Assembly (NCBI GenBank): GCA_964014485.1
Contig: CAXHAT010000199.1
Location: forward strand, 1 to 14,515
Direction: 5' to 3'
Length of the DNA: 14,515 nt
DNA from: an uncultured Deferribacteres bacterium
GTDB taxonomy: Bacteria; Zhuqueibacterota; Zhuqueibacteria; Zhuqueibacterales; Geothermadaptataceae
Each line of letters opens with the position of its first letter. The stretch's first letter is position 1. This document shows, piece after piece, positions 254 through 9,775 of this stretch. Both the position numbers and the translations under genes were made by a program. Below the pieces are notes generated by a model, which saw only the letters and a list, made by a program, of their open reading frames with translations, did not search any database and was not told the DNA's origin.

Positions 254-670
254 ATGGCGCTTGATGTTCGCTGGAAACAACGATTTCAAAATTTTGATCG
301 CGCCGTAAAGTTGCTGCGCGAACCGATTGAACAAGGTGTGGAAAGTTTGTCGGCATTGGAACGCGAAGGGATGGTTCAACGCTTTGAATTTGCGCTTGAG
401 CTTGCGTCGAAAACGCTCAAAGATTACCTCGAAAACGAGGGCAATATGATCAATCCCATTACGCCGCGAAACGTAATAAAGGCGGCGTTCGCAGCCAGAG
501 TTATTGACGACGGCCAGATTTGGATTGACATGCTCGATCATCGTAATTTGCTTTCACATACATATGATTCGCGTACATTCGAAGAAGCCGTAATCGCCAT
601 TCGTGATCGATATCAGCCGGAATTCGAAGCGTTGCACAATTGGCTTAAGAAACGCAGCCAGGAATCATGA
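254..670 (+). CDS. HEPN-domain protein, HI0074 family (nucleotidyltransferase substrate-binding subunit; putative HepT-like RNase toxin)
   Basis: Family-typical RWKQRFQNF and EGMVQRFEFALEL..KTLKDYL segments. HEPN RX4HXY motif RNLLSHTY. ATGA overlap with the downstream MNT gene. Confidence 0.92.
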   Translation: MALDVRWKQRFQNFDRAVKLLREPIEQGVESLSALEREGMVQRFEFALELASKTLKDYLENEGNMINPITPRNVIKAAFAARVIDDGQIWIDMLDHRNLLSHTYDSRTFEEAVIAIRDRYQPEFEALHNWLKKRSQES

Positions 671-966
671 CGAGCCATAGTTTGAGCGAACGAGAATGGT
701 CTCTAATCCGCGGCGTTCTCTCTAAACATCCTGAAATTACGAGCGCCATCCTTTTTGGTTCGCGCGCCAAAGGCTTGGCCGCGCCGTCTTCCGATATCGA
801 TTTGGCGCTTGAAGGCGTTGAAGACCCGCTTTATGCTGAAGCCGTCGCAAGCGAATTAGAAGAACTGCCGCTGCCGTATCATTTTGACGTCAAAGCTTTG
901 TCCGCGATTAAATCCGAGCCGCTGCGAGAACACATCATGAGAGTCGGAGTGAAAATATACAGCTAA
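667..966 (+). CDS. Minimal nucleotidyltransferase (MNT, HI0073/MntA-like antitoxin)
   Basis: LFGSRAKG.....SDIDL matches the GSX10DXD motif, third Asp in YHFDV, 99 aa, coupled to the HEPN gene. Confidence 0.92.
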   Translation: MTSHSLSEREWSLIRGVLSKHPEITSAILFGSRAKGLAAPSSDIDLALEGVEDPLYAEAVASELEELPLPYHFDVKALSAIKSEPLREHIMRVGVKIYS

Positions 967-1017: not shown

Positions 1018-2115
1018 ATGAAGAAATTGCGCAAGAAGTATCGGTTTTTGTTGATTTTTTGCTTGACCGTGCTCTGGGCGAACGTTGGAGCGCAGGACGC
1101 TCCCTTTGATGAACTTGACGGCAAATTTTTGTACGAAGATTTCGCCGGCTGCGCGCGATGCCACGGCTTGGACGGCAAGGGCGCCGTCGAAGGACTGGAG
1201 CTGGCTGACGAGCCGCCGGATTTTACCGATTGCAGCTTCAACACTCGCGAGCCGCGCAAAGACTGGCGCGCCGTGATCAACCACAGCGGTACAGCGCGCG
1301 GACTTTCCGAAACCATGCCCGCCTACGGTGAAGCCCTGAGCCCGGAACAAGTCGAAGCCATTATCGACTACATTAAAACTTTCTGCGAAGAAACTGGCTG
1401 GCCGCCGGGGGAATTGAACTTCAGAAGGCCGCAAATCACAACCAAAGCCTTCCCGGAGAATGAAGCGGTTTTTACTCAGTCTTTCGAACCGGTCAAAGAC
1501 TCGGACGTCGAAGTCGCTGTTTCAAAGTTCATCTACGAGCGTCGTCTCGGCAAACGCTCGCAGTGGGAAGTTGCGCTGCCGCTGACCGCAGGATTTGGCT
1601 CCGGCGCTTCGAGCGGCGTCGGCAACATCGAGCTTGGCCTGAAACACGTGCTCGCCTACAACCCCGCCGGGCGCAGTATTTTCAGCGGCGGCGTGGAAAC
1701 TGCTTTGCCCGCTATCAATTCCGGTGCAGGCAATGAAACCTTCGGCGTTGCGGCGTTTCTTGCCGCGGCAAAAGGCTTTGACGCTTTTGCATTGCAATCG
1801 AGCGTGAAATTCGAAGCGCCGCTGGAATCATCCAAAGGCGAGAAAGAACTATTTTGGAACACAGCGCTCACATTGCCGCTGACGAATGAGAAAAAAGGAT
1901 TCTATCCGATGGTCGAGTTCAGCGGCGTTCACGAATTGGATTCTGACGAAAATACGCTTTTAATCACGCCGCAAATTTACTTTGCGTTCGTCAAGAGCGG
2001 GCACATTGCCCTTTCTCTCGGCGGGCAAGTGCCGGTCGCTGGTCATCGTAAAAACGATTTTCGACTCGTCGCATTTTTTCTATGGGAATATGTCGACGGC
2101 GGACTTTGGTGGTGA
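1018..2115 (+). CDS. Secreted monoheme c-type cytochrome fused to a predicted outer-membrane beta-barrel
   Basis: Signal peptide ending ..VGA/QD. CARCH heme motif at nt 1150-1164 and distal MPAY Met at 1315. The C-terminal ~220 aa has about 12 amphipathic strand-like segments (WEVALP, GVGNIELGLKH, FSGGVETALP, ITPQIYF, LSLGGQVP, RLVAFFLWEY). The AGGAGG abuts the ATG, so TTG 1027 is an alternative start. Confidence 0.8.
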   Translation: MKKLRKKYRFLLIFCLTVLWANVGAQDAPFDELDGKFLYEDFAGCARCHGLDGKGAVEGLELADEPPDFTDCSFNTREPRKDWRAVINHSGTARGLSETMPAYGEALSPEQVEAIIDYIKTFCEETGWPPGELNFRRPQITTKAFPENEAVFTQSFEPVKDSDVEVAVSKFIYERRLGKRSQWEVALPLTAGFGSGASSGVGNIELGLKHVLAYNPAGRSIFSGGVETALPAINSGAGNETFGVAAFLAAAKGFDAFALQSSVKFEAPLESSKGEKELFWNTALTLPLTNEKKGFYPMVEFSGVHELDSDENTLLITPQIYFAFVKSGHIALSLGGQVPVAGHRKNDFRLVAFFLWEYVDGGLWW

Positions 2116-2116
2116 T

Positions 2117-2551
2117 GTGAACGACGAAAAAACGCTGATCGATAAAATTCGCGGTTTCATTCTGGCCATTTTTCTTTTCGCAATGCTCGGAGCCGGGACG
2201 GAACTCTTGCTGCTGGAGCATACCGAAGATTATTGGCAGCTCACGCCATTGCTTTTAATGGCGGGTTGCCTTCTCGTTCTTGGCTGGCACGCCAAGGCGC
2301 GTGCAAAAACGAGCTTGCGCGCCTTTCAGGTCGTGATGCTACTATTCATCGTCGGCGGGTTTGCCGGATTGATTTTGCATTTTCAGGGTAACATGGAATT
2401 CGAACTGGAAATGTACCCGTCTATTGAAACGACGGAGTTAATTTGGAAATCCCTCAAAGGCGCAACCCCGGCGTTGGCTCCGGGCGCGATGATCCAGCTT
2501 GGTTTGTTAGGGCTGGCGTTTACCTACCGACATCCAATTTTAAATCAGTAG
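2117..2551 (+). CDS. Hypothetical integral membrane protein (about 4 TM, 144 aa)
   Basis: GTG at 2117, 1 nt after the cytochrome stop, in frame with track ORF 1982..2551 whose 5' part overlaps the cytochrome gene. Four hydrophobic segments. ELLLLEH and LHFQGNMEFELE lie at helix ends. Confidence 0.8.
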   Translation: MNDEKTLIDKIRGFILAIFLFAMLGAGTELLLLEHTEDYWQLTPLLLMAGCLLVLGWHAKARAKTSLRAFQVVMLLFIVGGFAGLILHFQGNMEFELEMYPSIETTELIWKSLKGATPALAPGAMIQLGLLGLAFTYRHPILNQ

Positions 2552-2670: not shown

Positions 2671-3330
2671 ATGAAAAATCTTGGAAAACCGTTTTTAGGC
2701 TTAATGACCATAGCGTTTTTGATCTTCTGCTTTTCTGGAGCAGTCTCCGGACAAGTCGGTAAAAACCAGGGCGCGCTCAATCCGAATTTGGCGGGCGAAA
2801 AAGAATTAGCGGCATTGCCGCACATGACCGAAGCGCTGGTAGAAGGCGTGATGGAAAAGCGTCCGTTCCTCAGCATGACGGATCTGAACGCTTACTTGAG
2901 CGAAACGCTTTCGGAAGAAGCGTGCGGTGAGCTTTACGCCAAACTTTTCGTTCCGATCAATTTGAACACGGCGACGCGCGAGGAAATCTTGCTCGTTCCC
3001 GGCGTTGGGAAACGCATGGCGCATGAGTTCGAAGAATATCGCCCGTATCGCGCGATGGCGCAATTTCGGCGCGAAATCGCCAAGTATGTTGACGATAAGG
3101 AGCTGGCTCGTCTGGCGCAATTCGTTTTCGTCCCCGTTGAATTGAACACGGCCAGCGATGAAGACATTTTGAGCATCCCGGGGATCGGCAAAAGAATGTT
3201 GCACGAGTTCAAAGAATACCGGCCGTACAAAGACATCAAACAATTTCAGCGTGAAATCGCCAAGTATGTCGATAAAAAGGAATTAGCCCGGCTTGAGCGC
3301 TATGTGACGCTGGCTGAGAAAAAAGATTGA
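2671..3330 (+). CDS. Secreted protein with three ComEA/PsbU-like helix-hairpin-helix repeats
   Basis: AAGGA RBS and signal peptide (..AVSG/Q). INLNTATREEILLVPGVG and VELNTASDEDILSIPGIG HhH units, plus a diverged first unit LNPNLAGEKELAALPHM. Confidence 0.85.
   Translation: MKNLGKPFLGLMTIAFLIFCFSGAVSGQVGKNQGALNPNLAGEKELAALPHMTEALVEGVMEKRPFLSMTDLNAYLSETLSEEACGELYAKLFVPINLNTATREEILLVPGVGKRMAHEFEEYRPYRAMAQFRREIAKYVDDKELARLAQFVFVPVELNTASDEDILSIPGIGKRMLHEFKEYRPYKDIKQFQREIAKYVDKKELARLERYVTLAEKKD
2947..3306 (+). repeat. Intragenic tandem duplication, 2 x 180 bp (60 aa)
   Basis: 2947-3126 vs 3127-3306: 41 of 60 residues identical by manual alignment. Confidence 0.9.
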
Positions 3331-3610: not shown

Positions 3611-4621
3611 GTGCTGCGCAAATCCACATTATTCGCTTCTGTTCGAATAGTCCTTTTCTTGTTATGGGGCGCCGTTTTTCTCTTCGCCGGGTGCAGAAGC
3701 GACCGGCCCAAAGCGCCGCGACTCAAGGTTGTTGAAAACCGTCAGCCTGTCCCTGAGTTTTCCATTCCCAACAAAAAGCCGGGCGAAAAGTACGTCTATT
3801 TTATCGCCTTGGGCGACCAGGGAAAGGGCGGCGATCCGCAACGGCGCGTCGCCAAATTGATGGATGAGAAAGCGCAAAAAGATTCTTTGCATTTCATCAT
3901 CACCCTCGGCGATAATTTTTACGGCGACGGCGTGACTTCAGTAGAAGACCCGCAATGGATTCAAAAATTTGAAGAAATGTACGATCTGCCCCACTTGCAA
4001 ACGCCCTTCTACCCCACGCTTGGCAACCATGATCATCACGACGGCAACGGCAAGCACCAAATAGAATACGCCAAGCTCAACGACAAATGGCGCATGCCGC
4101 ATTACTACTATACTTTTTCAAAACCACTGGATAACGGCGCTTCCATCCAATTCTTCGCCATCGACACAGACGTGCTCAGAAAAAAAAGAAGATGGGACGA
4201 TGAACAGCTTGCGTGGCTCGAAAACGAATTGGCGGTTTCAACCGCAACCTGGAAAATTGTCTATGGGCATCATCCGGTTTACACATACGGCAAACACGGC
4301 GATGAAAAACGTATGATTCAGCGCGTACTCCCTCTGTTAAAAAAATACAAAGCCGACGCTTTTATTGCCGGCCACGAACACGACCGGCAATTGATTGAGC
4401 GCGACGGTATGTACTATATAATCTCCGGCACCGGATCAAAAACGCGCGACACGCGGTATGGCGAGCACACGATTTTCGCTGAGACGAATCTCGGCTTTGC
4501 CTGGTTTCGCGCGTCGGAAAGCGAGTTGCACATGCAATTCATCAACCGATACGGCGAAATTGAATACGCGCATACCTGGACGAAAGACGCCGGGGCGAAA
4601 GAATCTTTAAGTTTGCGATAA
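3611..4621 (+). CDS. Purple acid phosphatase / tartrate-resistant acid phosphatase-type metallophosphoesterase, probable lipoprotein
   Basis: All five motifs present: GDQG, GDNFY, GNHD, VYGHH, GHEH. Lipobox-like LFAGC. GAGG upstream of the GTG start. Confidence 0.9.
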   Translation: MLRKSTLFASVRIVLFLLWGAVFLFAGCRSDRPKAPRLKVVENRQPVPEFSIPNKKPGEKYVYFIALGDQGKGGDPQRRVAKLMDEKAQKDSLHFIITLGDNFYGDGVTSVEDPQWIQKFEEMYDLPHLQTPFYPTLGNHDHHDGNGKHQIEYAKLNDKWRMPHYYYTFSKPLDNGASIQFFAIDTDVLRKKRRWDDEQLAWLENELAVSTATWKIVYGHHPVYTYGKHGDEKRMIQRVLPLLKKYKADAFIAGHEHDRQLIERDGMYYIISGTGSKTRDTRYGEHTIFAETNLGFAWFRASESELHMQFINRYGEIEYAHTWTKDAGAKESLSLR

Positions 4622-4656
4622 TTCTATAAAACCGGATCATAAAGGAAGAGTTTTCC

Positions 4657-5493
4657 ATGAAAAAGCGTTCCATTGTTCTTGCCGTTATCGCAGCAATTTC
4701 ATTTGATGCGCAAACTCTGCCAAAACTGCTCGCTCAAGAGCAGAAACATTTTCAAAGCTCGGCTCTCGAAAAGCAAAAGAATATCGAAAGCGGTTCTCAT
4801 CAAAGCGCTCCGTTCTACCGCAGCCGGATTTTCAAGACGCTTGCATTTGCTGGGACGGCGATAGCCTTGCGCGAGTTTGCAGACGGCACGACAGACAAAG
4901 AATATGGCGTTGAGCAAGATTTTAAACCGTTTGGCTTGCCCAAAACCCTCTCGAATATCGGGGAGGTCTACGACGAATTCGGCAGCAAAAGATCAGTTAT
5001 TGCATTGTCCGGATCGGCGTTGGCCGGCGGTTTGGCCTTCGGAGACAAGAAGCTAAGAGAAACGTCGATTTTGATCGTCGCTTCTTTAGCGGGCACGATG
5101 GGGATCACCATGACGGGAAAAAGGATCTTCGGCAGGACGCGGCCTTACAAAGAGGTCGGGCCGCATGATTTCAATTTTCTCAAATTCAGCGCAGAGCACC
5201 AATATCAAAGCTTTCCTTCCGGACATACTTCAAGCGTTTTCGCGATGGTGACCGTGGTCGCCAAACAATATCCCAAAACCTGGGTTAAAGTCCCGGCCTA
5301 TCTCATGGGCGTCTCGGTAGCGATGCAAAGAATCGTGAGTCGAAATCACTGGGTTTCAGATACTTTTGTCGGCGGAAGTCTCGGCTATTTTGTCGCTTCT
5401 TTCGCAGTCAAGTATAATAAAAATCGTCAACGGCCGCTTGCCCTAAGACCCTTAATTGCCCCGAATCGTTTGGGAGCGTTAGTGAGCTTTTAG
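4657..5493 (+). CDS. PAP2-family phosphatase
   Basis: C1 KRIFGRTRP, C2 SFPSGH, C3 QRIVSRNHWVSD, hydrophobic helices, AAGGA RBS. Confidence 0.9.
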   Translation: MKKRSIVLAVIAAISFDAQTLPKLLAQEQKHFQSSALEKQKNIESGSHQSAPFYRSRIFKTLAFAGTAIALREFADGTTDKEYGVEQDFKPFGLPKTLSNIGEVYDEFGSKRSVIALSGSALAGGLAFGDKKLRETSILIVASLAGTMGITMTGKRIFGRTRPYKEVGPHDFNFLKFSAEHQYQSFPSGHTSSVFAMVTVVAKQYPKTWVKVPAYLMGVSVAMQRIVSRNHWVSDTFVGGSLGYFVASFAVKYNKNRQRPLALRPLIAPNRLGALVSF

Positions 5494-6031: not shown

Positions 6032-6763
6032 ATGTCATTAAAGTCCATTTTCTTGCTCGCAGTCCCGTTGTTCTGCAACTGCGGCGGCAATAATCCGCTC
6101 TCCCCGCTTGAACTCATTAACGAGTTCAATCTCAGCATTCCCGAACCTTCAGGGCTGACACTCGGCAAAAACAAACAATCGCTCTGGGTTGTGAACGATC
6201 CCCCAAACAATGAAATCTACGAAATTACGCTTGAAGGCGCCGTCATCCGCAAGCTTAGTTTCAAAGGCGATGATCTTGAAGGCGTTACGTACGACAGCGA
6301 CAATGACGTTCTCTGGGTTGCAGAAGAGCAAAAACGCGAAGTGCTGCAAATTGCGCTTGACGGAACCGTGCTTACACGTCGCGCCGTCAACGTGGATAAC
6401 TCGAAGGATCAAGGCTTGGAAGGAATTTTTCTGAGCCGAACGGGAACATTGTGGGTGGTAAATGAAAAAAAACCGGGCAGACTGATCTCTCTAAATACAA
6501 ATTTTCAAATCGACGGAGAATTCCCTCTGAATTTCGCCAAAGATTATTCCGGACTTTGCCAAGCTGAAAATGAACGGCAAATCTGGATCATCAGCGATGA
6601 AAGCGAAAAACTTGTGCTGTGGGATAAAGATTCCGGGGTCAAGAAAATGTACGAGCTTCCCTTCAAAAAAGCCGAGGGCGTTGCAGTCGACTCCGCCCAA
6701 AATCTCGTTTATATCGTGAGCGACAGCGAAGAAAAGCTGTACATATTCAGGCTAGGTCATTGA
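6032..6763 (+). CDS. SdiA-regulated/YjiK-like beta-propeller protein, possible lipoprotein
   Basis: Repeating blades EPSGLT..LWVVND, DLEGVT..LWVAEE, GLEGI..LWVVNEK, DYSGL..IWIISDES, KAEGVA..VYIVSD. Short signal ending in FCNC. Confidence 0.8.
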   Translation: MSLKSIFLLAVPLFCNCGGNNPLSPLELINEFNLSIPEPSGLTLGKNKQSLWVVNDPPNNEIYEITLEGAVIRKLSFKGDDLEGVTYDSDNDVLWVAEEQKREVLQIALDGTVLTRRAVNVDNSKDQGLEGIFLSRTGTLWVVNEKKPGRLISLNTNFQIDGEFPLNFAKDYSGLCQAENERQIWIISDESEKLVLWDKDSGVKKMYELPFKKAEGVAVDSAQNLVYIVSDSEEKLYIFRLGH

Positions 6764-7333
6764 AGGCGCGCTTAAACCTCGCGGCTCATTTTTGCCGTCA
6801 AACCAAAACGATTTCAAGTCCAAGGGGATAACGTCATCAATTGCAAGAGCGCGGTCTGCATGGAGATTGTACGCGCTGAGCAACTCATCCATGTTCTGCC
6901 GGAATTTATTTAAAAGAGGCTCGGATTGCCGCCCGCTGTTGAGCTCATGCCGTACTGTTACGATCAAATCGCCGATTTTTTCACTGTAATAATTACACAT
7001 AGAAACGTGAATCAGGTTATCAACCAAAGCGGAAATTTTTTCTTCATTTCTGTTTAGCGCATCCGCTGCTTTTTTTTCATTAAAGCTCGCCAGCCTCTTT
7101 TGTAAACTTTTGTTCACGCCAAGATAGGAGAATTGCGAGCGCGGCTTCTCGTGAAAATCGGTTTTGGGCGCGAACTCAGACATAATGTGACGTTCAGTTT
7201 TTTCACGCTCGTTCGATTCCATGCCACGATGCGATGCATAGCGCAGCGTGTTCGATTTTTTTATGTATTCGACCATAATCATCAGGTCGAAGCTGGAGAA
7301 ATATATAAGTTCAATCATGATGATCTCGTTCAT
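6752..7333 (-). CDS. Hypothetical protein (start uncertain: 7333, 7222 or 7183)
   Basis: Long open frame with a helical, protein-like C-terminal ~140 aa, downstream of and co-oriented with the two-component pair. 12-nt convergent overlap with the upstream + gene. No recognised motif. Confidence 0.55.
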   Translation of the reverse strand: MNEIIMIELIYFSSFDLMIMVEYIKKSNTLRYASHRGMESNEREKTERHIMSEFAPKTDFHEKPRSQFSYLGVNKSLQKRLASFNEKKAADALNRNEEKISALVDNLIHVSMCNYYSEKIGDLIVTVRHELNSGRQSEPLLNKFRQNMDELLSAYNLHADRALAIDDVIPLDLKSFWFDGKNEPRGLSAPSMT

Positions 7334-7688: not shown

Positions 7689-9101
7689 TTAAAACGAAGG
7701 AGTGTTTTTGGCGGGAAAAGTGACGGTTACCGTCGTGCCTTTGGCGAGTTCGCTGGCGACTTTGATTTCTCCGCCGTGCGCATGAGCGATCCATTGGCAA
7801 ATGGCCAAGCCAAGCCCGCTGCCGCTTTTAGTGGAAGTTCGAGCTTTGTCGGATTGGTAAAAACGATCAAAAATATAAGGTAACTCTTCCTCGGAAACCC
7901 CCGAGCCGGTATCCGACACAGAAAGCGATACTTCCTTTTCAGATGATTTGAGCCGAAAATCGATTCGGCCTCTATTTGTATTTTTAATGGCATTGTCTGC
8001 AAGGTTTAAAACGAGACGGCGCAAGAGTTCCGCCCAGCCGGAAAACTCAACGGCGTCACAATCGGTGTGAATAGAAATCGGACGGTCGCCGACGAGAATT
8101 TCCGCATCTTCCGCCACTTCGGAGATGATTTGATCTAAACGAAACTTCTCTTTCTGAATTGGATAATTACCTGCGTCCGTTTGCGCAAGCAGCAGGAGAT
8201 TATCGACGATCTGACTCATATAAATGACACGATCGAGCGTCTTGCGTAACGCTTCGCGCACATCTTCCGGCAAATCTTCTCGCTGGTACAGCAACTCCAC
8301 ATCGCCCCGCTGAATGGTCAAGGGCGTTCGTAGCTCATGCGCCGCGTCCTGGGTGAATTGCCGCACGCGTTTCACGCCGTCTTCAATCCGTGAAATCATC
8401 AGGTTTAGCGTATCCACCAAAACGCCGAATTCATCTTTTCCTGCGTATTCGGGCAGACGATTGCCGAGGTTTTTCAACGATATATTTTCAGTCGCTTTGG
8501 CGGCGGCCACAACCGGCTTCATTGAAAGGCGCGCTAAAACCAGCCCTCCCAGAAGGACAAGAACCAACGTAACCGGCGCGCCGACTAAAAGCATCTCTCG
8601 AATTTCATCGGCAATTTCATAAAAAATCTGGTTTGGCATGCCGACGATCTGAACGCCCCATTCATGCTGAGTTACGTGAGCGCGGTACCGTCTTCCTTCA
8701 ATATGCAAATTGTAAAAGCCATCCTCGTTGGAGAGAAAGTCGCCCTGATGAATAAGCCGATCAAGATTGTGCTCCCCGCCTGCCCTAATAACCAACTTCT
8801 CCCCCGCCCTATGAATAGCGAAAATTGAGAACTGCCGCTTGTTGTCATACAAATCATGCAAGTCTTCGTCAAGTTCTTCTCGCAGCGTGTCAAATTCCGT
8901 TCCTGCCGCACTCGTCAACTCGACGTATTCTTCGTCCATCAAGTCCAATGATGATTTTTTCTCGCCAATCAGCGATTTATCCAACTCTTCATTCAAACTG
9001 ACATACAACGCAACGCCGCCGCTGACCAGCACCAAAACCAGTACGACAAAAAAAACGAGTGTGATCAGTAACGTAAGCCGAGTGCGGATTGAAAGTTTCA
9101 T
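7689..9101 (-). CDS. HAMP-domain sensor histidine kinase (HisKA, CusS/CzcS-like architecture)
   Basis: Two TM helices, HAMP, H-box AAHELRTPL, N-box NLADNAIK, DTGSG, IFDRFY, GSGLGL. Confidence 0.95.
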   Translation of the reverse strand: MKLSIRTRLTLLITLVFFVVLVLVLVSGGVALYVSLNEELDKSLIGEKKSSLDLMDEEYVELTSAAGTEFDTLREELDEDLHDLYDNKRQFSIFAIHRAGEKLVIRAGGEHNLDRLIHQGDFLSNEDGFYNLHIEGRRYRAHVTQHEWGVQIVGMPNQIFYEIADEIREMLLVGAPVTLVLVLLGGLVLARLSMKPVVAAAKATENISLKNLGNRLPEYAGKDEFGVLVDTLNLMISRIEDGVKRVRQFTQDAAHELRTPLTIQRGDVELLYQREDLPEDVREALRKTLDRVIYMSQIVDNLLLLAQTDAGNYPIQKEKFRLDQIISEVAEDAEILVGDRPISIHTDCDAVEFSGWAELLRRLVLNLADNAIKNTNRGRIDFRLKSSEKEVSLSVSDTGSGVSEEELPYIFDRFYQSDKARTSTKSGSGLGLAICQWIAHAHGGEIKVASELAKGTTVTVTFPAKNTPSF

Positions 9102-9775
9102 TCGCTATGATCCCTGATCGAGTAGCCGCCGTTTCGTACAGTATGAATGAGTTTGGGGCCGCCGGGAATTTCGATTTTTTTCCGCAGACGTCGAATGTAA
9201 ACTTCGATCAAATTATAATCGCTGGAAAAATGGAAATCCCACACATGCTCCGCGATCATACCCTTGCTCAAAAGCCGGTTCTTGTTTCTCAACAAATATT
9301 CCAGAACTGCGTATTCACGGTTCGTGAGTTCAAGGAGCGTTCCCTTTTTTCGAACTTCATGGGAAACCGTGTCCAGCGTCAAATCTCCAGCGCTCAAAAC
9401 CGGCGATTTTGTGGGCGCTTGTCTCCGCAATAGAGAGCGAACGCGAGCGCGCAATTCCGCAACCGCGAACGGTTTGGCCAAATAATCGTCGGCGCCGGCG
9501 TCCAGACCGGCTACGCGATCAGGGACTTCCCCCAGCGCCGTAAGTATCAAAACCGGAGCTTGTACGCCTTCTTCACGAATCGATTTTAACACGTCTATTC
9601 CGTTTTTTCCGGGAAGCAGAATGTCCATGATGATCAAGTCATAAGATTCCGACAATGCCTGTTCTTCACCTGTCGCCCCAGTGGCCGCCAGATCTACGGC
9701 ATGTCTCTCGTCAACCATGACTTTTTTGACGAAATCCGCGATGTCACGGTCGTCTTCCACAACCAGAATGCGCAT
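9098..9775 (-). CDS. OmpR/PhoB-family response regulator (CusR/CzcR-like)
   Basis: MRILVVEDD, MDILLP phospho-Asp, GADDYLAKPF, winged helix NLIEVYIRRLRKKI..IHTVRNGGY. 4-nt overlap with the kinase gene. Confidence 0.95.
   Translation of the reverse strand: MRILVVEDDRDIADFVKKVMVDERHAVDLAATGATGEEQALSESYDLIIMDILLPGKNGIDVLKSIREEGVQAPVLILTALGEVPDRVAGLDAGADDYLAKPFAVAELRARVRSLLRRQAPTKSPVLSAGDLTLDTVSHEVRKKGTLLELTNREYAVLEYLLRNKNRLLSKGMIAEHVWDFHFSSDYNLIEVYIRRLRKKIEIPGGPKLIHTVRNGGYSIRDHSE

Follow-up and report, generated by a model that had tools for sequence, protein, structure and literature searches.

The window, that is, the whole stretch of 14,515 nucleotides analyzed here, contains an intact gene whose product joins an N-terminal class I cytochrome c to a predicted outer-membrane barrel, followed after a single nucleotide by the gene of a small membrane protein (Table 1). 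The N-terminus of the fusion protein, read by eye, is basic and hydrophobic and carries a cleavage site of the VGA/QD type. As a minor point, an in-frame TTG at 1027 offers an alternative start with better Shine-Dalgarno spacing than the ATG at 1018. A scan for promoters and terminators upstream of the gene returned nothing useful. Contigs from a public run, possibly of the source sample, matched the ORF without differences in the listed pieces, which covered 1018-1669 and 1702-2017. At the edge of the window, bases 1-17 do not match the contig of that run, whose sequence runs on differently; they resemble a transposase library adapter end and are probably an assembly remnant.

Table 1 Features of the fusion gene and its neighbors in the window.
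Feature	Position	Strand	Basis or remark
Cytochrome c-barrel fusion gene (P0001)	1018..2115	+	Intact ORF, 365 aa
Probable Sec signal peptide, residues 1-25	1018..1092	+	Sequence by eye; modelled helix over residues 2-21
Class I monoheme cytochrome c domain, residues 33-123	1114..1386	+	Pfam, superposition on 7o38, conservation
CXXCH (C45/C48/H49); distal Met100	1150-1164; 1315-1317	+	Within cytochrome domain
Predicted lumen plug, residues 124-148	1387..1461	+	Aligns with FapF plug and Pput2725 N-terminal plug
Predicted 12-stranded COG4313/FapF-type outer-membrane barrel, residues 149-357; polar, acid-rich lumen	1462..2088	+	AF2, Foldseek, superposition
Conserved aromatic tail, periplasmic side; predicted cytochrome contact R77-D360	2089..2115	+	Conservation, coevolution
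144-aa membrane protein of no known family, two invariant His	2117..2551	+	1 nt past fusion stop
Probably secreted helix-hairpin-helix (HhH) repeat protein	2671..3330	+	Pfam HHH_3; travels with 144-aa gene
Nucleotidyltransferase substrate-binding/HepT-like and Polbeta NTase pair, toxin-antitoxin-like	254-966	+	Similar pair flanks fusion in L098
Probably exported metallophosphoesterase and PAP2 phosphatase	3611-5493	+	Each near fusion in 5/128 loci, mainly sister family
193-aa protein of no known family	6752-7333	-	Homologs near fusion in L104, L106
OmpR-type two-component pair	7689-9775	-	Best match heavy-metal sensor family TIGR01386/TIGR01387, below cut-off

Pfam models PF13442 and PF00034 matched residues 34-121 of the fusion above their cut-offs, and no Pfam or NCBIfam model matched its C-terminal two thirds. 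The protein has exactly one CXXCH, as do 118 of its 120 best homologs (the other two are gene calls starting at the distal Met), and M100 was kept in all 120 aligned homologs. The domain superposed on a Kuenenia cytochrome (7o38) with a Z score of 12.3 and an rmsd of 1.8 Å over 80 residues, and L38 coevolves with I115, as tested for the crossing N- and C-terminal helices of class I proteins. With its CXXCH, a distal Met approximately 50 residues on, the Pfam matches and the 7o38 match, the domain is a class I His/Met cytochrome c. The ORF reading, Pfam and the conservation of M100 thus bear out the signal peptide, single CXXCH and distal Met described in an earlier note on this DNA, which had also suggested that two extra Cys could form a disulfide. 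Of the 366 full-length relatives, 334 retain both of these residues, C72 and C123, 31 have neither and 1 has a single one. Because of this joint retention and loss, and because the pair ranks 18th among coevolving pairs, the alignment makes a C72-C123 disulfide likely.

The fusion was modelled with AlphaFold2 on the family alignment. The model has a helical cytochrome domain and 12 strands over residues 149-357, with a mean pLDDT of 91.9 and a pTM of 0.84 (whole chain); alternating polarity is clear in 10 of the 12 predicted strands, and W356 and W365 in the aromatic tail region are conserved. In the Foldseek ranking, the top matches were FapF, with an E value of 5.7e-9, and Pput2725, a COG4313 channel, with 8.8e-9. 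In superpositions (VIA), FapF (5o65) aligned with model residues 131-358 over 216 residues (Z 22.4, rmsd 2.6 Å), and Pput2725 (4rl8) aligned with model residues 139-358 over 214 residues (Z 21.1, rmsd 2.5 Å) on residues 1-268 of its chain, plug included. The model therefore agrees with the earlier note on about 12 strand-like segments with an aromatic tail and on an outer-membrane barrel rather than a soluble fold in the C-terminal part; taken with Pfam, it upholds the architecture proposed there, in which a complete class I cytochrome is joined to a 12-stranded barrel of COG4313-like type. The Pro-rich segment that the note took for a linker (residues 124-148) is indeed present, but it would be a plug instead, because it superposes on the N-terminal segment serving as lumen plug in both solved proteins. 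In the available text on FapF and Pput2725, this plug enters the lumen from the periplasm (PMC5557850; PMC4493636).

The predicted plug is the most conserved stretch of the fusion, with a mean top-residue frequency of 0.70 versus 0.45-0.55 for the strands, and the extracellular loops except L3 (the PTG loop) are its least conserved parts (0.18-0.39). Conserved acids (E149, E174, E184, E227, E266, E277, and E300) face inward in the predicted barrel. An acidic lumen does not point to a metal, since Pput2725 has one too and, in the available description, is thought to pass hydrophobic molecules (PMC4493636). The window's barrel had no PF13557 match at E 0.01, and 23 of 33 family barrels did match (best 2.9e-10); in the Atlas, the fusion's barrel lies among PF13557 models, and its neighbors carry PF13557 in 20-81% of their members. 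The PTG and GxGD motifs were retained widely among the 366 relatives (P in 355, T in 301, G in 340, and D in 343). The window's copy has lost several residues typical of the family, with P-A-I for PTG, N203 for D and S327 for R.

Mean-field coevolution was run on the 366 full-length relatives, a shallow alignment with an effective size of 230. Among the top-ranking pairs, R77-N148, P79-A323, G95-V325, and R77-D360 link the cytochrome to the barrel part at ranks 3, 4, 7, and 14, respectively. Of the 10 strongest cytochrome-barrel pairs, seven involve the periplasmic rim (background 26%), and R77-N148 and P79-A323 remained at ranks 3-7 in three 70% subsamples. Since 17 of the 30 top barrel pairs in the control fell on neighboring strands, versus a background of 22%, the docking signal in the alignment is real but noisy. 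The cytochrome is likely to dock on the periplasmic rim of the barrel, as predicted from these pairs, with a docking face that includes the loop before the distal Met. Furthermore, the plug coevolves with both the cytochrome and the barrel (R77-N148, F135-G253, and I140-V351). With a single heme on the predicted inner rim and a plug above it, direct electron transfer across the outer membrane by the fusion is unlikely, which weakens the trans-outer-membrane electron conduit put forward in the earlier note. A redox-coupled channel, the other reading offered there, would fit the model better as a proposal.

The protein search returned 261 relatives among 7705 candidates, the best of them 50-60% identical over their full length; named best relatives came from candidate division KSB1, Ignavibacteriales, Bacteroidota, and Binatia. 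A KSB1-like host is therefore probable, and the best-matching DNA run carries the label marine metagenome. A plug and barrel profile found 5744 proteins among 8000 scored, and 308 of the 50%-identity representatives had E values of 1e-30 or better. Metagenomes held at least 536 relatives among the 598 pattern matches listed; the patterns were taken from the plug, so barrels with another plug would be missed. Members of the family number in the hundreds to thousands among environmental sequences, belong to uncultured bacteria of soil and sediment across many phyla, and are annotated as no more than "cytochrome c" or "hypothetical". The fusion also occurs, with a pentaheme cytochrome, in one record titled Eubacteriales (L007), a group whose members normally lack an outer membrane; this copy groups with Aminicenantes copies, and the record is possibly mislabelled or a mixed bin.

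Retention of the heme was read from two counts. With plug and barrel as the query, 104 of the best 120 proteins had the CXXCH, and the remaining 16 have their start within the cytochrome domain, so the homologs do keep the motif, as the earlier reading implied. Among the 80 metagenome loci kept, the heme motif was present in 75; of the other five, 3 are cut by the contig end, 1 contains a frameshift, and 1 has a damaged motif. No intact hemeless form of the fusion was seen among these 120 proteins and 80 loci. The 366-sequence set was chosen for CXXCH and the plug motif and is therefore no evidence for heme conservation, and 46 of 80 GTDB loci matching the cytochrome domain alone were dropped from all counts. 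Hemeless PF13557 paralogs adjoin the fusion in 8 loci and are a plausible source of its barrel. In the window's phylum, the fusion occurred in 13 of 167 genomes, all within the window's order, and was found in 12 of 19 genomes of the sister family and 0 of 9 of the window's own family. Two of the 13 copies in the order are broken. The copy in G162 is interrupted, and at L106:7530-8712 (G161) the C-terminal third of the fusion stands alone, directly after a hemeless barrel-like gene.

A pentaheme cytochrome was adjacent to the fusion in 56 of 128 loci, 21 of them among the 34 GTDB loci and 35 among the 80 from metagenomes. We placed 112 of the 128 loci in a FastTree phylogeny with a midpoint root, in which "branch" does not denote a rooted clade; the remaining 16 were left out as truncated or frameshifted sequences, as exact duplicates, or because they failed the length filter. 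All 51 pentaheme-linked rows fell on one side of a branch with support 100. That side comprises 71 rows (51 with the pentaheme, 9 without, and 11 too short), and the window's side comprises 41 rows, none with the pentaheme (28 without and 13 too short). No close pentaheme was adjacent in the window or in 13 loci of its order. Likewise, none was found in the window's genome, which is 97% complete and has distant ones alone (best E 3.6e-18), or in any genome of the order that carries the fusion (13 genomes, best E 2e-21). Conversely, a close pentaheme without the fusion was found in 6 genomes of the window's own family. These two patterns led us to reject an obligate link between fusion and pentaheme in the window's branch. 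Among 13 other fusion-bearing genomes, whose completeness is unstated, 10 had no pentaheme match at E 1e-10, 2 had distant matches and 1 had a close one at a contig end. The window's copy, where the fusion persists without the pentaheme, indicates that the fusion and not the pair is the core unit.

The partner pentaheme has the fold of c552 from T. tepidum (5ze8, E 4e-15), and the ExtKL model matched 25 of 33 partner pentahemes. In the 33 aligned partners, an invariant Tyr stands where MccSep has selenocysteine, and no invariant Cys was found outside the five CXXCH motifs. We rejected an assignment as an MccSep/ExtKL polysulfide reductase, as the partner has neither Sec/Cys in the Ig-domain loop nor the heme-ligating Cys. 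In relatives (L188-L192, L202, and L203), pentahemes of 620-745 aa end in a tail that by eye resembles a type IX secretion signal, which suggests secreted members of the PHC family.

No dominant substitute partner was found outside the pentaheme branch, where 118 neighbors gave no dominant family and most were unrelated. Downstream of the window's fusion, the 144-aa protein belongs to a family with 1563 matches whose two His were invariant in 120 of 120 relatives, and we infer a candidate small cytochrome b or a metal site; this unannotated family is a candidate link to the inner membrane. Its gene and the HhH gene lie near the fusion in 10 of 128 loci, in both branches (two being near-duplicates). 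The two are no obligate partners of the fusion, because the two-His protein was present in 8 of the 34 fusion-bearing genomes tested, and the HhH gene, present in 12 of 29 genomes of the order, occurred in 8 of 13 fusion-bearing genomes and in 4 of 16 others. A PsbU-like role considered for the HhH protein was dropped, as a PDB search gave ComEA-like matches alone. Other loci encode, next to the fusion, a protein with a type-1-copper-like motif (6 of 9 adjacent homologs), and 2 loci of the window's order have cytochromes with 20-28 hemes as neighbors. At L101:1673-6529 and L102:11339-14883, these cytochromes are arranged in tandem and accompanied by a Haem_bd protein, which is reminiscent of PCC3 clusters.

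The window's genome encodes cytochrome c assembly genes, three heme-copper oxidase-family subunits, and 17 ORFs with three or more CXXCH motifs. A search of it for PF13557 and MtrB/PioB gave no match, but as the controls also fell below the cut-off, this absence carries no information. Elsewhere in the same genome (G000:C29:42752-49841, L227), genes for an octaheme cytochrome, a 547-aa protein (no Pfam match, C-terminal Phe), and a 1215-aa decaheme cytochrome with LVIVD repeats form a possible porin-multiheme cluster.

We tentatively favor, at slightly less than even chance, a redox station under a gated pore, in which a heme predicted at the periplasmic mouth would trade single electrons with an entering small solute and use swappable periplasmic partners. 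The heme motif, distal Met, family-wide fusion, and gene neighbors are read from the DNA directly, and the barrel, plug, and periplasmic docking enter as predictions. A small solute would enter the acidic vestibule or a lateral gate of the plugged barrel. Across the plug, it would swap one electron with the His/Met heme, which in turn would pass electrons to or from a periplasmic carrier supplied by the lineage. A heme that is presumably six-coordinate (His/Met) would suit electron transfer rather than catalysis, and the solute would have to come part-way in, as proposed for Cyc2. In one branch, the swappable partner would be a pentaheme resembling ExtKL and c552; in the window, the two-His membrane protein co-translated with the fusion is the most likely candidate, and other loci would use cupredoxin-like proteins or 20-28-heme cytochromes.

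Alternatively, the barrel could be an ordinary COG4313-type uptake channel or a mere anchor, with the cytochrome tethered to it as an electron carrier that serves an enzyme of the periplasm acting on the imported molecule, so that the heme never meets the solute. The family matches COG4313 channels in fold, plug, and GxGD/PTG motifs, hemeless PF13557 paralogs sit next to the fusion in the 8 loci, and the pentaheme partner is enzyme-like in its invariant Tyr; in the available text, Geobacter ExtKL is clustered with a porin, ExtI (PMC11976967). This account is harder to reconcile with the window's branch, where none of 28 informative loci has an adjacent enzyme partner and the 13 genomes of the order lack a close pentaheme. 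The predicted docking, conserved and with the Met-loop face held tightly against the pore mouth, also goes beyond what a tether would require, and we place the account on the unlikely side while giving it real weight. We think improbable a redox-gated or redox-sensing channel, in which the oxidation state of the heme or the C72-C123 disulfide would control the plug. The plug directly follows C123 and coevolves with cytochrome and barrel, similar OmpR-type pairs (best matching, below cut-off, a heavy-metal sensor family) occur in 6 of 14 loci of the order, and the FapF plug is described in the available text as regulated by a periplasmic N-terminal domain (PMC5557850). However, 31 of the 366 relatives have no such disulfide, and redox carriers as neighbors imply a flow of electrons and not a switch. 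Reduction alters the shape of class I cytochromes little, which likewise speaks against gating.

Electron transfer to solid minerals or electrodes through a true trans-membrane conduit would have to hop via aromatics of the plug and wall, and conserved ones exist (W83, W128, F135, F145, W356, and W365), as do giant multiheme cytochromes beside 2 loci. Nevertheless, there is one heme, predicted at the periplasmic rim; the poorly conserved extracellular loops leave no conserved outer docking face, and an extracellular cytochrome is not a regular neighbor. Keffer et al., in the text available, made the same distance argument for Cyc2, where the solute must enter the pore (10.1101/228056), and we regard a conduit as quite improbable. 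Display of the cytochrome on the cell surface by an autotransporter-like protein is hardly credible. Autotransporter barrels are also 12-stranded and matched at Z 14-17, but FapF and Pput2725, which keep their N-terminus inside, score higher, the model has no pore-spanning helix, and the cytochrome contacts map to periplasmic turns.

Returning to the redox station, we lean slightly towards oxidation of the incoming solute (a metal ion or a small redox shuttle) over its reduction, because His/Met class I hemes are usually high-potential, cupredoxin-like neighbors occur, and three heme-copper oxidase-family genes are present. In the pentaheme branch, the oxidative direction is disfavored because the characterized relatives of the pentaheme are low-potential or reductases in the available accounts (PMC11976967; 10.1101/2025.11.18.688581). 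In a bolder form, which we consider rather unlikely, the family would be a second, independently evolved class of single-protein outer-membrane oxidoreductases. Through a plugged 12-stranded barrel, a reduced metal ion or a small shuttle would reach a His/Met heme of high potential. The carriers downstream would be interchangeable and could be the pentaheme, a cupredoxin, giant multihemes, or a membrane cytochrome b with two His that connects to the quinone pool. If true, this would give KSB1, Acidobacteriota, Binatia, Gemmatimonadota, and Ignavibacteria a route of extracellular electron uptake missed by Cyc2/Mtr searches. The protein, one chain of 340 residues, is open to direct testing by the expression and assay methods that are standard for Cyc2.

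In the open-access literature (main texts), our searches returned no description of a 12-stranded or COG4313/PF13557 barrel joined to a cytochrome. The available portions of surveys of Fe oxidation (PMC13741234; PMC10654088) and neutrophilic extracellular electron transfer (EET) (PMC5566968), of a peat EET study (10.64898/2026.05.27.727921), and of a Cyc2 study (PMC13647500) name only Cyc2/Cyt572-type fusions or separate porin-multiheme clusters. The described cytochrome-porin fusions, Cyc2 and Cyt572, are both 16-stranded according to the text available (10.1101/228056; PMC13741234), and the present family is a separate fusion on a different barrel.

Set beside the accessible parts of the published descriptions, the fusion resembles the Cyc2/Cyt572 Fe(II) oxidases in its signal peptide, N-terminal one-CXXCH cytochrome, and fused outer-membrane barrel, and in a heme predicted to be periplasmic, so that a solute must enter the pore (10.1101/228056; PMC13741234). 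It differs in having 12 predicted strands of the COG4313 type rather than 16 of the OprO/P type, a full class I domain with a distal Met rather than a short one, and, in the model, a separate peptide plug. The Cyc2 motif is AxPxFAR[Q/K][T/Y] upstream of CXXCH with PxL after it, as given by Keffer et al. (10.1101/228056); PxFAR or CXXCH-PxL occurred in 0 of 366 relatives, the window's protein included. An NCBIfam scan of the fusion listed no Cyc2 model, and NCBIfam may hold none. Given the absent motif, the 12 predicted strands, and the 12-stranded top matches, we rejected an assignment to Cyc2, in accordance with the earlier note, which had described AxPxFAR as absent here. The family is a cytochrome-porin fusion independent of Cyc2.

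With the COG4313/PF13557 channels (Pput2725, SphA, and TcpY; PMC4493636) and FapF (PMC5557850), as far as the available text describes them, the fusion shares the modelled 12-stranded barrel and a plug entering from the periplasm at the N-terminal side, as well as an acidic lumen and, in most of the 366 relatives, the PTG motif at the base of loop 3. Its heme domain sets it apart, as Pput2725 has none in that place and FapF has a coiled coil, and so do the decayed PTG and missing PF13557 match of the window's barrel. The pentaheme branch is like the Geobacter ExtI-ExtKL (MccSep) and PHC systems, including T. tepidum c552, in placing an outer-membrane channel gene beside a periplasmic pentaheme with an Ig-like domain, as outlined in the accessible text (10.1101/2025.11.18.688581; PMC11976967). 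Unlike those, the partner carries Tyr in place of the selenocysteine and lacks conserved Cys apart from those of the heme motifs, the channel has another fold and its own heme, and the window's branch is without the adjacent pentaheme. The MtrAB, MtoAB, PCC3, and PCC4 conduits, in the portion of the survey available, also combine a barrel with cytochromes and sometimes a His-bearing inner-membrane protein (PMC5566968); they use large barrels threaded by separate multiheme wires, whereas the fusion offers a small barrel, predicted to be plugged, with one fused heme.
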